9,836 nt of DNA from a virus. Taxonomy: Duplodnaviria > Heunggongvirae > Uroviricota > Caudoviricetes. The position numbers were made by a program, and so were the translations under genes. The notes under the pieces are model-generated. The model was not told the origin of the DNA. It was given only the letters and a program-made list of their open reading frames with translations, and searched no databases. The stretch lies in IMG/VR virus record IMGVR_UViG_2541047798_000001; one strand, written 5' to 3'. Shown one piece after another: positions 2,895 through 7,063 of this stretch (positions within the stretch are counted from its first letter, which is position 1; each line of letters begins with the position of its first letter).

Positions 2895-3194
2895 ATGAGA
2901 ACATATTTATCTGGCTTGACTGCCAGCGGTTATGCACACCCCCAAATTATCCCCGGCGCTATTTATCTGGATAAGAACGGTAACAGAGTAACGGTAAAAG
3001 AACTGATGTTTGACCGAGTGTATTTTATCCGTGATGGCTATTCATTTCTTAGTTCGCTGAACGTGGAGATCTTTATTAGCAGATTCAGGCGGGAAATCCC
3101 GCTTTCCAGAAATAACCATGTGTCATGTATGGATGTTGATAAAAAACTACAGGAACTAAAAAACATGATTGCCGCGTGGAGAGAGCAGAAATGA
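2895..3194 (+). CDS. Hypothetical protein (99 aa), possibly DUF4222-like
   Basis: Segment PGAIYLDKNGNRVTVKELMFDRVYFIRDGYS resembles prophage DUF4222 proteins as recalled; stop overlaps the primase ATG (ATGA). Confidence 0.45.
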   Translation: MRTYLSGLTASGYAHPQIIPGAIYLDKNGNRVTVKELMFDRVYFIRDGYSFLSSLNVEIFISRFRREIPLSRNNHVSCMDVDKKLQELKNMIAAWREQK

Positions 3195-5314
3195 AAAAAG
3201 CGCCAAATTTAAAACACCAGCCACGTGACAAAATGACGGAAGTCATCATTTTTGCGGGTAGTGATGCGTGGGCACATGCGAAGCAGTGGCAGGAACAGGA
3301 CGGGCGACTGGCTGGCGACAGCGTGCCTCCTGTCTGGCTTGGAGAGCAACAACTTGCCGAACTGGATAAGCTGCAAATTGTGCCGGAAGGCCGAAAATCA
3401 GTACGCATATTCAGGGCCGGACATCTTGAGCCAGTAATGATCAAGGCGATTGGTCAGAAGCTGGCGGCGGCAGGCGTACAGGATGCAAATTTTTACCCTG
3501 ATGGAATGCACGGTCAGGAGGTGGAGAACTGGCGCGAATATCTAGCCCGTGAGCGGCAGAATCTTTCTGATGGTCTGGTTATTGAGTTTCCGGTAAAGAA
3601 AAAAGATACCGGAAGCCATAGCGATGACGAATTAAAGCCACGCGTTGAAAGTCGCGCCGATGGTGTTTTCTGGGTAACGCCCAAAGTGGATAAGCAGTCA
3701 GGCGAAATTATCCGGCCTGAGACGTGGTTATGTTCTCCGCTTGAACTACTGGGAACGGGGACGATCGGTAAAGAGCATTACCGCGTGATGCGCTGGAAAA
3801 AAACCGCAAACCATGAAGTCATCACAATGGCGATCCCGTGTGGTGGTATCGGCGACCGTGACGGCTGGCGGTTACTTAAAGATCACGGGCTGAACGTGAC
3901 AACCAACGGCAAATACAGGGCAATCCTGGCGGACTGGATGCAGTTAAGCGGAAGCCATGAGGAATGGCAGTTAAGCACAACAACGGGCTGGCATTTTGGC
4001 GCGTACATCATGCCGGACGGTTCGATCATTGGTGAATCTGAAAAACCGATCCTGTTTACCGGAAAAAGCGCCGCGATTAACGGTTATTCCGTGGCGGGCA
4101 CGGCGGATGGCTGGCGCGACAGCGTGGCGCGGCTGGCTGGCGGTAATGCCTCAATGATGCTGGGTGTGGCAACGTCACTGGCAGCGCCTTTAATTGGCCT
4201 TGTGGGTGCTGACGGCTTCGGGGTGCATCTTTTCGAACAGTCATCGGCAGGTAAGACCACCACGCAGAACATCGCATCAAGTTTATGGGGAGAGCCGGAC
4301 GCGCAGCGGCTGACCTGGTACGGCACGGCGTTAGGTATTGCCAATGAGGCCGAGGCCCATAATGACGGGCTTTTACCACTGGATGAGATAGGCCAGGCCG
4401 GAAATGCGCGGGAAGTGTCAACGTCTGCTTATACGCTGTTTAACGGTTCAGGGAAATTGCAGGGGGCGAAGGATGGCGGCAACAGGGAGATCAAACACTG
4501 GCGAACGGTGGCAATCAGCACCGGAGAAATGGACGTTGAGACATTCCTCAAAAGTGAGGGGATAAAAGTTAAGGCGGGGCAGCTTGTCCGACTGCTTAAC
4601 GTTCCGATGGAAAAAGCCACGAAATTTCACGAATACAGCAACGGTAAGGAACATGCTGACGCGTTAAAGGATGCCTGGACAGCAAATCACGGGGCGGCGG
4701 GTCGTGAGTGGGTTAAATGGCTGGCAGGCCACCAGCAGGAGGCAAAGGATACGGTAAGGGAATGCCGCGAACGGTGGCGCAACCTGATACCGGAGAGCTA
4801 CGGCGAGCAGGTCCACCGCGTGGGTGAACGTTTCGCCATACTGGAGGCCGCGCTTGTGCTTTCCGGTCATGTAACTGGCTGGGTCGTGCAGGAATGCCGC
4901 GACGCGATACAGCATAACTTTAATGCCTGGGTGAAGGAGTTCGGCACGGGTAACAGGGAATTTAAACAGATGGTTGAACAGGCTGAGGCGTTTTTGTCGT
5001 CGTTTGGGTTTAGCCGCTACCTTCCGTACCCCAATACAGATGAGCGTGATTTACCGATTAAAGAGCTTGCCGGATACAGAAAAGGGAGCATTCGCAACGA
5101 AGATGACGAGATGCGCTATTACACGTTCCCGCACGTGTTTGAGAGTGAGATAGCGAAGGGATTTAATCCGGCGCATTTTGCGCGTGCCCTGGATGCTGCC
5201 GGAATGCTGGAGAAGGGAAGCGATCGCCGATACAAAAAAAAGGCGCTGGGCAAGATTGGGGGTAAGCAGCATGTTTTTTACGTGCTGATGTTCCAGCCTG
5301 ATGATGAAGATTAA
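3191..5314 (+). CDS. Replication initiation protein: primase/helicase-like P-loop NTPase (DUF927 / P4 alpha-like)
   Basis: 707 aa from the ATG at 3191 (SD GGAGAG; ATGA overlap with the upstream ORF). Deviant Walker A FEQSSAGKTTT and Walker B LLPLDEIG; N-terminal segment EVIIFAGSDAWAHA may be Toprim-like; followed immediately by an iteron array. Confidence 0.7.
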   Translation: MKKAPNLKHQPRDKMTEVIIFAGSDAWAHAKQWQEQDGRLAGDSVPPVWLGEQQLAELDKLQIVPEGRKSVRIFRAGHLEPVMIKAIGQKLAAAGVQDANFYPDGMHGQEVENWREYLARERQNLSDGLVIEFPVKKKDTGSHSDDELKPRVESRADGVFWVTPKVDKQSGEIIRPETWLCSPLELLGTGTIGKEHYRVMRWKKTANHEVITMAIPCGGIGDRDGWRLLKDHGLNVTTNGKYRAILADWMQLSGSHEEWQLSTTTGWHFGAYIMPDGSIIGESEKPILFTGKSAAINGYSVAGTADGWRDSVARLAGGNASMMLGVATSLAAPLIGLVGADGFGVHLFEQSSAGKTTTQNIASSLWGEPDAQRLTWYGTALGIANEAEAHNDGLLPLDEIGQAGNAREVSTSAYTLFNGSGKLQGAKDGGNREIKHWRTVAISTGEMDVETFLKSEGIKVKAGQLVRLLNVPMEKATKFHEYSNGKEHADALKDAWTANHGAAGREWVKWLAGHQQEAKDTVRECRERWRNLIPESYGEQVHRVGERFAILEAALVLSGHVTGWVVQECRDAIQHNFNAWVKEFGTGNREFKQMVEQAEAFLSSFGFSRYLPYPNTDERDLPIKELAGYRKGSIRNEDDEMRYYTFPHVFESEIAKGFNPAHFARALDAAGMLEKGSDRRYKKKALGKIGGKQHVFYVLMFQPDDED

Positions 5315-5336
5315 TCCCCTGTGTGAGGAAAAAAAT

Positions 5337-5652
5337 TGCGGGTTATGCGGGTTATCCTGTGTATAAGTGTATTAAGTGCATGAATATAAAGGAAACCAAT
5401 AACCCGCACGTAACCCGCAAAAGGGCATTTATAACCCGCAAAAGCACGATTATAACCCGCAGGCGAATAACTGAAGTAACACCGGACAGTCATGCGTAAC
5501 CCGCAGAAAAAACCCCGTTTGCGGGTTATTTTGAGCGTTTTGCGGGTTACGTGGTGAGCAAATAATAAACAGGGCGTTTTGCAAAATACTGATATAAAAG
5601 GATAAAAAATGGTTAGCACGCTAAGATAACCCAATAACCCGCATAACCCGCA
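5337..5652. repeat. Iteron-type origin of replication: at least 11 copies of (A)TAACCCGCA / TGCGGGTTA plus an AT-rich (TA)5 tract
   Basis: Copies at 5337-5345, 5346-5354, 5520-5528, 5541-5549 (TGCGGGTTA orientation) and 5399-5408, 5411-5419, 5431-5440, 5452-5461, 5497-5505, 5634-5643, 5644-5652 (TAACCCGCA orientation); degenerate copy at 5626-5633; (TA)5 at 5661-5670. Sits directly 3' of the replication gene. Confidence 0.7.
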
Positions 5653-5684
5653 CATGTTTCTATATATATAAATTGAGGTGGCAA

Positions 5685-5936
5685 ATGACCAGAACACGCA
5701 GAGACAGAACAGAGCCAAAATATAAAGCGTTAGACATGACTGAGCACACCTTAAAGGTGGCAATCAGAACGATAGACCGCCACACGCGGGAAGGATACGC
5801 GAAGGAACATCCCGACCTGATAAGCGCATTCATGACCACGGCGGCGGAAAACTTTGCCACGCTGACAGAACGGGAGATTGCCGAAGCGGAACAGGTAACA
5901 ACCATCAACGTTAAAACCGGAGAGGTGGAATCATGA
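5685..5936 (+). CDS. Hypothetical protein (83 aa)
   Basis: ATG at 5685 with SD GAGGTGG (5675-5681); the TTG start at 5673 from the ORF track is less likely. Stop overlaps the ssb ATG (ATGA). Confidence 0.5.
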   Translation: MTRTRRDRTEPKYKALDMTEHTLKVAIRTIDRHTREGYAKEHPDLISAFMTTAAENFATLTEREIAEAEQVTTINVKTGEVES

Positions 5937-6343
5937 CAGCACAGATAGCGGCTTACGGTCGGCTGGTGGACGACCCGCAGGTAAAACAGACCAGCAAGGG
6001 CACACCGATGACGCTGGCGCGTATGGCGGTATCACTGCCATGCAGTCAGGCACAGGACGGACAGGCGACGTTATGGCTATCGGTCATCGCATTTGGTAAG
6101 CAGGCCGACTTCCTGGCTAAACATCAAAAAGGCGACGTTGCCAGCGTATCCGGCACGATGCAGGTAAGCCAGTGGACCGGACAGAACGGGGAGACGCGTC
6201 AGGGTTATCAGGTTATTGCAGACAGCGTAATCAGTGCCCGTGCGGCACGTCCTGGCGGGAACAGACGCAAAACCACAGGCGCACAGGGTAATCAGCCACC
6301 AGCGGGAGGCGATGACCCTTACGGTGATGATATTCCGTTCTGA
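5933..6343 (+). CDS. ssb: Single-stranded DNA-binding protein (SSB-like)
   Basis: 136 aa. OB-fold-like N-terminal region aligns by eye with E. coli SSB (AAYGRLVDDPQV ~ LVGNLGQDPEV; LWLSVIAFGKQADFLAKHQKGDVASVSGTMQVSQWTGQNGETRQGYQVIADSV ~ [50 protein letters not shown]); Gly/Pro/Gln-rich linker; C-terminal acidic tip GDDIPF identical to the SSB partner-binding motif. Confidence 0.8.
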   Translation: MTAQIAAYGRLVDDPQVKQTSKGTPMTLARMAVSLPCSQAQDGQATLWLSVIAFGKQADFLAKHQKGDVASVSGTMQVSQWTGQNGETRQGYQVIADSVISARAARPGGNRRKTTGAQGNQPPAGGDDPYGDDIPF

Positions 6344-6353
6344 GGGGGTGACG

Positions 6354-6602
6354 ATGGTACATGACCGCATAGCGGAAGAACTCGAAGCGAAAGGATTTTA
6401 CCGGAGGGCGGCGGCGCGATGGGGTGAAGTCATGATGCTGGTGGAGACAGACAAGGAACGGCATCACATCACGATGCGACGGCTGGAATGTTCCAGGAAG
6501 GCACAGAGGCCACCGGAGCCGCCAACGGAGAACTATGCAGACCTGAGAAATGCAGTAAATCGCACTTACGCAGACATGGGGCTGAGCAAATTAGCAGAGT
6601 AG
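6354..6602 (+). CDS. PerC-family transcriptional regulator-like protein
   Basis: 82 aa from the internal ATG at 6354 (SD GAGGGGG; begins 10 nt after the ssb stop). Motif AEELEAKGFYRRAAARWGEVM matches the PerC/Pch signature as recalled. The upstream part of ORF 6234..6602 overlaps ssb and is rejected. Confidence 0.5.
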   Translation: MVHDRIAEELEAKGFYRRAAARWGEVMMLVETDKERHHITMRRLECSRKAQRPPEPPTENYADLRNAVNRTYADMGLSKLAE

Positions 6603-6624
6603 GAATACCAGAACCACACCACAC

Positions 6625-6647
6625 AGCCGGAGCAATCCGGCTTTTTT
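6625..6647 (+). terminator. Rho-independent terminator after the replication operon
   Basis: Stem AGCCGGA / TCCGGCT with GCAA loop followed by T6. Confidence 0.7.
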
Positions 6648-6658
6648 GCGCCCAAAAA

Positions 6659-6693
6659 AAGCCCGATAAGGTCAGAGGTGGCTTATCGGGCTT
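6659..6693. terminator. Second hairpin, possibly a bidirectional terminator
   Basis: Perfect 12-bp stem AAGCCCGATAAG / CTTATCGGGCTT with 11-nt loop; A7 upstream and T4 downstream. Confidence 0.5.
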
Positions 6694-6772
6694 TTGCATA
6701 TGAGGTTTTTTGGTGCACTGACACACATGATCGGGATAATAATTTCATAATTTGCAACGCAACTCAATATCA

Positions 6773-6825
6773 TTGCACAAAATGCAATCATGATTATAAT
6801 CATAACTGGATGAACATCCAGTTAT
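6773..6825 (+). promoter_or_regulatory. Capsid-operon promoter: TTGCAC(6773-6778)-N16-TATAAT(6795-6800) embedded in three palindromes
   Basis: Perfect -10 and 4/6 -35. Palindromes: ATTGCA-caaaa-TGCAAT (6772-6788), ATGATTATAATCAT (6790-6803), ATAACTGGATG-AA-CATCCAGTTAT (6802-6825, at the predicted start region). Confidence 0.5.
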
Positions 6826-6856
6826 GATTTTTTAAGTCAAAGAGGAATTTCTTACT

Positions 6857-7063
6857 ATGGCTGAAGAGAAAAAAGGCGGTGTTTCGGTGTACATAAGCCC
6901 CGACATCGTGAAGGCGCTCAAGGAACGCCACCAGCAGAACGTAAAAGCAGGCATTGCGGCAGGACTTGATCCGCTGGCGATGGTTGAGCCGTCAACAGGC
7001 TGGCAGGTACGCGCCTATTTACGCGCGGCGCTGGGTATGAATCAGGTTCACGGGGGTGAATAA
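6857..7063 (+). CDS. Hypothetical small protein (68 aa), first gene of the capsid operon
   Basis: SD AGAGGA upstream; stop overlaps the capsid ATG (TAATG). N-terminus (GGVSVYISPDIVKALKERHQQ) is compatible with a ribbon-helix-helix fold, but this is uncertain. Confidence 0.5.
   Translation: MAEEKKGGVSVYISPDIVKALKERHQQNVKAGIAAGLDPLAMVEPSTGWQVRAYLRAALGMNQVHGGE

Follow-up and report, generated by a model that had tools for sequence, protein, structure and literature searches.

The stretch of DNA analysed here, referred to as the window, is 9,836 nucleotides long, and its features are collected in Table 1. An SSB gene lies in a compact block formed by an 83-aa ORF, the SSB gene and a PerC-family gene, which is closed by a terminator-like hairpin and follows a helicase gene and an iteron-bearing origin. 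The features by which PICIs have been defined (PMC6092414) were found in the window, namely a terminal tyrosine integrase, alpA, genes running in one direction, a helicase followed by an iteron ori, a length of ~10 kb and chromosomal insertion. Together with the DUF927 assignment of the helicase, the encoded homologues of the lambda capsid E and decoration D proteins and the lambda-type cos sites, they bear out the view of the earlier note that the element is a phage satellite, and the gene content of the window places it among the Gram-negative PICIs of the EcCICFT073 type.

Table 1. Features of the window and of related loci (nucleotide positions refer to the window unless another locus is named).
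Feature	Position	Strand	Remarks
Tyrosine integrase	1-1239
AlpA	1649-1858
DUF4222 protein			between AlpA and helicase in gene order
Replication initiator/helicase, DUF927, Cch/SaPI-Rep-like	3191..5314	+	PF06048, E = 1.6e-48; RefSeq start
N-terminal domain shared among helicases	3191-3680 (residues about 1-160); locus L013 6242-6730; locus L009 1153-1520
Putative replication origin	5330..5660	both	11 exact TAACCCGCA iterons flanking an AT-rich stretch at about 5560-5625
83-aa ORF (phrog_1231)	5685..5936	+	ATG at 5685, a start also used by RefSeq in SCU-172; stop overlaps SSB start
Other upstream ORFs ending in the ATGA overlap	locus L003 6585-7004; locus L006 7212-7592; locus L010 2231-3004
Shine-Dalgarno sequence GGAGAGGTGG	5919-5928	+	predicted from sequence; strong; 4 nt before the SSB ATG
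ATGA stop/start overlap of 83-aa ORF and SSB	5933-5936	+	TGA at 5934-5936
SSB coding sequence	5933..6343	+	ATG start, 136 aa, TGA stop; C-terminus ...DDPYGDDIPF
Predicted OB-fold ssDNA-binding domain, residues 1-107	5933..6253	+	AlphaFold2, Foldseek, residue alignment, dN/dS
Predicted disordered linker, residues 108-127, GGNRRKTTGAQGNQPPAGG...	6254..6313	+	pLDDT 51-66, without predicted secondary structure
Acidic C-terminal tip DPYGDDIPF, residues 128-136	6314..6340	+	aligns with E. coli SSB ...PMDFDDDIPF
PerC-family regulator	6354..6602	+	PF06069, E = 1e-35; 10 nt past the SSB stop
Terminator-like hairpin	6625..6652	+	7-bp stem with 5 GC pairs, then TTTTTT; consensus match only
SSB-PerC regions	6354-6602; locus L003 7618-8197; locus L010 3467-4196; locus L011 3463-3993; locus L014 6462-7279
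Lambda-type cosN cores GGGCGGCGACCTCGCG	8955-8970; 9475-9490	+; -	0 expected by chance

The exact iteron matches, 11 against 0.1 expected by chance, all fall within 5337-5652. It has been reported that the ori of Gram-negative PICIs lies 3' of pri and contains two iteron sets around an AT-rich region (PMC6092414), and the putative origin of the window has the same layout. The helicase encoded before it also scores weakly against the model of the SCCmec Cch helicase. Since a simple sigma-70 scan between the ori and the 83-aa ORF gave no convincing promoter, transcription of the block by read-through from upstream is assumed; a scan of the whole window with Rfam at gathering thresholds returned no RNA family. 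At the other end of the block, SSB is followed by PerC in most of the islands, and in several of them a gene for a ProQ/FinO-family RNA-binding protein lies between the two. PerC homologues of PICIs have been described as having no effect on LEE virulence-gene expression, or as repressing LEE (PMC11773190).

The best genome match was E. coli SCU-172, which covers 96% of the window at 98.5% identity and in which the island occupies ~10.5 kb between cspD/yljB and clpS. Of the known systems, EcCICFT073 of E. coli CFT073 is the closest. Its SSB (WP_000126698.1) is identical to that of the window in 134 of 136 residues, positions 5757-9001 of the window are collinear with it at 95% identity, and the two neighbourhoods are alike, with a primase/helicase, the ori, a small ORF with a 4-nt overlap, SSB, PerC, a 68-aa ORF, capsid E, decoration D and a 137-aa ORF. 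The two islands differ in their helicases, which belong to the D5_N/DUF5906 (SF3) type in EcCICFT073 and to the DUF927 type in the window, and in their insertion sites, since EcCICFT073 integrates next to roxA; EcCICFT073 also keeps rppA. The 137-aa ORF of the window (8479-8892, after the decoration gene) matches the C-terminal end of the head-maturation-protease family phrog_53 (profile positions 494-567 of 583, E = 7e-10); it may be a scaffold-like piece that accompanies the homologues of capsid E and decoration D.

Beyond these genes, the two cosN cores are inverted relative to each other and lie within 72-nt inverted arms at 8924-8995 and 9450-9521, and the segment 8924-9189 aligns to EcCICFT073 in reverse orientation. 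An intact rppA gene, whose product redirects the helper TerS and which is common in such islands without defining them, was not found in the window; a remnant of ~72 nt at 9185-9256, where no ORF is annotated, aligns to the 3' end of CFT073 rppA (c1503). Because rppA is reduced to this remnant, the island may no longer redirect packaging or interfere with its helper by way of Rpp. The cos sites also bear on the possible use of the SSB in recombination, in which it would work with a Red beta-type annealing protein of the helper or with host RecA/RecFOR in making or protecting concatemers for cos packaging. Islands of the EcCICFT073 type are packaged from concatemers via cos (PMC6092414), two cos cores are present here, and it has been reported that Sak of phage 80alpha cooperates with the SSB of that phage and that phage annealing proteins use the SSB C-terminal tail (PMC11846896). 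However, the island contains no recombinase gene, and the SSB gene always stands beside the helicase and ori rather than beside the packaging genes, so that a main role of this kind appears unlikely.

The SSB gene itself is intact. All 411 of its bases recur at 100% identity in the finished genome of SCU-172, where the identical copy is named 'single-stranded DNA-binding protein' by RefSeq (WP_000126690.1), and the gene is therefore not a sequencing artefact, a frameshift or a truncation; the reading frame given in the earlier note, from ATG to TGA with 136 aa, stands as it was described. In a Nei-Gojobori comparison of the OB domain across nine loci, dN/dS was 0.05-0.22 for nearly all pairs, the exceptions being one near-identical pair with 0.30 and one pair with an identical OB-domain protein and a value of 0. 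The SSB is under purifying selection. A megablast search detected SSB DNA in 1170 of the 5426 complete E. coli genomes, roughly a fifth, and over at least 80% of its length in 994 of them. These results weigh against the notion of a decaying passenger gene without current function: most of rppA has been lost and parts of the island are degenerating, but the SSB has an intact ORF, low dN/dS in nearly all pairs, a wide occurrence among E. coli genomes and a conserved tip, and decay of this gene is thus extremely improbable.

Family, structure and residue comparisons agree in predicting a canonical bacterial-type SSB; that the protein is an SSB had been proposed in the earlier note. The protein matches Pfam PF00436 with E = 4e-17 and 62.5 bits (cut-off 26) and NCBIfam TIGR00621 with 58 bits (cut-off 53.95), and sequence matches were obtained to 26 solved SSB structures. 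The AlphaFold2 monomer model, built on 71 relatives, shows an OB barrel with pLDDT 92-97 over residues 1-100, in which strands are modelled at E3-11, 16-19, 25-36, 44-54, 69-82 and 88-101 and a helix at 55-62. A Foldseek search of the PDB with this model listed bacterial SSBs in 50 of 50 matches at probability 1.0. In comparison with the chromosomal SSB of E. coli (178 aa), the two proteins are only 26% identical but share the OB fold, a disordered linker and three of the four stacking aromatics, W54, F60 and W88 of E. coli being aligned with W48, F54 and W81 of the satellite protein. Across the 71 aligned relatives, every sequence has F54, 65 have W48, and the residue at position 81 is W in 47 of them and another aromatic, Y or F, in 22. 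The fourth aromatic, W40, is replaced by C37, and H55, a tetramer-interface residue in E. coli, is replaced by L49. The linker of the satellite SSB is also shorter, with ~20 residues including basic ones compared with ~55 in E. coli SSB. Because W40 and H55 are replaced and the linker is short and carries basic residues, the satellite SSB could depart from the host protein in its mode of binding, its cooperativity and its oligomeric state.

The linker varies in length and sequence among relatives of 136, 140/141 and 149 aa, and, as judged from the aligned sequences, the acidic tip is conserved while the linker varies. The last five residues, DDIPF, are the same as in the tip of E. coli SSB (DDDIPF), and position -7 is aromatic in both proteins, Y in the satellite SSB and F in the host SSB, which agrees with the host-like tail described in the earlier note. 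Among 120 close relatives, the tip is GDDIPF in 67 and GDNIPF in 26 despite the varying linker, and the majority of full-length distant relatives terminate in ...[FY]-D-D-x-[IL]-P-F; the invariance of the last residue in the 71-sequence alignment is by construction, as that alignment was chosen for sequences ending in F. Specific mimicry of the host was considered as an explanation of the tip and rejected, because an acidic ...D-D-[IL]-P-F end is the family norm of bacterial-type SSBs and is seen in most of the distant relatives too. Nor is the tip universally host-like, because some relatives in other genera end in ...YDDDF or ...PPYDKPL (Klebsiella loci L016, L017 and L019 at about 6001-6444; Serratia locus L018 at 6001-6471).

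The same tip could serve a decoy or competitor, which would divert the partners of host SSB, or ssDNA, from the helper and so hamper its replication. The identity of the last five residues with those of the host is consistent with such a role, and helper interference is common among satellites (PMC6092414, PMC6739421). However, deletion of rppA alone from EcCICFT073, whose SSB is the near-identical protein described above (134 of 136 residues), fully restored lambda plaques, with titres nearly those obtained without the island (PMC6739421), and therefore leaves little room for SSB-based interference. This argument is an indirect one, because the pBAD overexpression screen of EcCICFT073 genes covered only c1499-c1507 and the SSB lies outside that range (PMC6739421). 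Overall, a decoy function is considered improbable.

The start of the SSB gene overlaps the end of the 83-aa ORF by 4 nt. This ORF matches phrog_1231, a PHROG without an assigned function, with E = 5e-52, and no Pfam or NCBIfam family was found for it or for the alternative upstream ORFs, nor a PHROG match for the alternative ORF of 139 aa. The 164 homologues of the 83-aa ORF are nearly all from Escherichia or Shigella. The AlphaFold model of the 83-aa protein is a low-confidence helical hairpin with pLDDT 66, and a fold search with this model gave no significant match. The ATGA junction is present in all nine annotated loci compared (eight E. coli and one Klebsiella), whichever upstream ORF supplies the TGA, and these ORFs are of three unrelated kinds, with 81-87 aa (phrog_1231), 126-139 aa and 257 aa. 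Conservation of the junction is partly trivial, because the SSB begins with Met-Thr (ATG ACx) and any ORF that enters it in the -1 frame must stop there. Some relatives from Klebsiella and Edwardsiella lack an upstream ORF of 45 aa or more that reaches the SSB start. Of the statement in the earlier note that translation of the SSB is coupled to that of the upstream ORF, the overlap is upheld, and the coupling itself is plausible. One could also imagine a module of two parts, with the SSB as the constant one and the coupled upstream ORF as an exchangeable client or adaptor. The latter would steer the SSB or its tip, for example, towards a particular helper replisome, or against a helper recombination system or an SSB-sensing defence; this arrangement is unlikely.

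With regard to its origin, the SSB scores 28.2 bits against NF006533 for enterobacterial chromosomal SSBs (cut-off 260) and 24.8 bits against NF010292 for F-plasmid SSBs (cut-off 265). Because these scores are far below the cut-offs of both subfamilies, its lineage is not that of the host. A tblastn search of 50,697 phage records gave no close relative of the SSB, the best matches being 35% identical and from unrelated phages; a recent capture from a helper-type coliphage or another known phage was accordingly considered and rejected on the basis of this best match. In tblastn searches of plasmid records, most of the relatives lay on small records of the non-mobilizable class, and some of these records resemble satellite-type or primase replicons. 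From the subfamily scores and the lack of a close phage relative, the SSB therefore looks like a long-standing lineage of satellites and small replicons rather than a recent capture. A profile scan of genome contigs used a narrower alignment and gave six loci, and the taxonomic breadth of the SSB has thus been sampled. The satellite-specific lineage, with its lack of close relatives among the phage records, and the variable upstream ORFs coupled to the SSB are circumstantial points for a defence-related function, in which the SSB would mask ssDNA, or SSB-sensing immunity, or would be a trigger or antagonist in the conflict of satellite, phage and host. On the other hand, no defence component was noticed among the neighbouring genes, and a role of the housekeeping type accords with the constant place of the SSB gene in the replication module and with the strong purifying selection that acts on its DNA-binding core, so that a defence-related function is very unlikely.

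The order helicase, small ORF (where present) and SSB was seen in every locus inspected. The loci with the helicase-SSB order are PICIs of the classical (the window and CFT073), helper-embedded and capsid-forming types, together with a Klebsiella element and a VapE primase replicon of Enterobacter. The cassette is found in the helper-embedded PICIs L002 and L004, which are inserted in a prophage capsid gene, and in the capsid-forming PICIs of the O157 EDL933 type L008, L009 and L011. The gene disrupted in L002 and L004 encodes the major capsid protein of a lambdoid prophage, and split capsid pseudogenes lie on both sides of the island; the same pair of small ORF and SSB is present, and an abortive-infection or DUF2971 gene lies downstream. 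SSB genes with at least 96% DNA identity are paired with three unrelated helicase modules, namely DUF927, D5_N/DUF5906/Pox_D5 (SF3) and AAA_25 RepA. Because three unrelated helicase modules accompany the SSB, its main partners are expected to be generic ones, that is, ssDNA and host proteins, and not one satellite helicase. As a separate observation, an N-terminal domain of ~125-160 aa is common to the DUF927, D5_N/DUF5906 SF3 and AAA_25 RepA helicases of E. coli PICIs, with 71-78% identity. This domain gave no match in Pfam or among PDB sequences, and its role in the initiator could be iteron binding or priming.

Two further groups of SSBs from mobile elements can be compared with the satellite protein. 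F-plasmid-type SSBs (NF010292) are likewise bacterial-type SSB copies on mobile elements with a host-compatible acidic tip, and the SSB copies of conjugative plasmids can substitute for the host SSB. However, the plasmid SSBs belong to another lineage and are encoded in the leading region, where they serve incoming ssDNA, whereas the satellite SSB is encoded in a helicase-ori module. The helicase and SSB modules of staphylococcal SCC elements and related MGEs resemble the window in that a self-loading DUF927/SF3 helicase adjoins a small SSB-type gene in an integrative element. In such modules, contacts with partners have been ascribed to the SSB C-terminal tail (PMC10061031). The SSB-like proteins of these elements differ in having an A-family polymerase partner and divergent tails, while the window has no polymerase gene and its SSB has a canonical host-type tip.

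Taken together, the SSB is probably an accessory replication protein in the replication module of an EcCICFT073-type PICI. The earlier note had proposed service to the replication of the element or competition for partners, and the evidence favours a replication role over partner competition. In support of the replication role, the gene has a fixed position beside the helicase and ori, the DNA-binding core and the tip are under purifying selection, and the SSB is indifferent to the kind of helicase that it accompanies. In a survey of Gram-negative PICIs, SSB was placed in the Replication category together with primase and DUF5906 proteins, colocalised with mapped origins (PMC10111431). According to the proposed course of events, a lambdoid helper phage would induce the island, and a rightward transcript would extend from alpA, across the helicase gene and origin, into the 83-aa ORF, SSB and PerC genes. 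The DUF927 helicase would open the iteron origin, as suggested by the published pri-ori work on EcCICFT073, and the OB domain of the SSB would coat the single strands exposed at the origin and at the forks, for which it has the appropriate fold and three of the four aromatics. The proteins that read the tip of E. coli SSB include Pol III chi, DnaG and PriA, and by analogy with E. coli SSB the ...YGDDIPF tip may dock on such host readers. Docking of this kind could link the foreign helicase with the replisome of the host and supply additional SSB during the joint replication of phage and satellite. The ATGA overlap and the strong Shine-Dalgarno sequence would tie translation of the SSB to the small upstream ORF. 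It has also been reported that a plasmid with no more of EcCICFT073 than a pri-ori fragment is maintained in DH5alpha (PMC6092414). Initiation can therefore proceed without the SSB, which lies outside the minimal replicon and whose contribution may be small or conditional.

The SSB is already known and ordinary in kind: RefSeq annotates it, the best-studied E. coli PICI carries it, and a published survey counts it among the PICI replication genes. Our literature search found no functional study of any Gram-negative PICI SSB, and the cf-PICI paper makes no mention of SSB. The experimental gap concerns what a satellite gains from an SSB of its own, given that the host provides one and that the minimal pri-ori replicon works without it. 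A phenotype could be sought, for example, in the replication rate under competition with the helper or in tip-mediated coupling to host Pol III. The SSB accompanies three unrelated helicases and is carried by classical, helper-embedded and capsid-forming PICIs, and matching DNA was seen in about one in five of the complete E. coli genomes; any clear phenotype would therefore hold for a very large set of elements.
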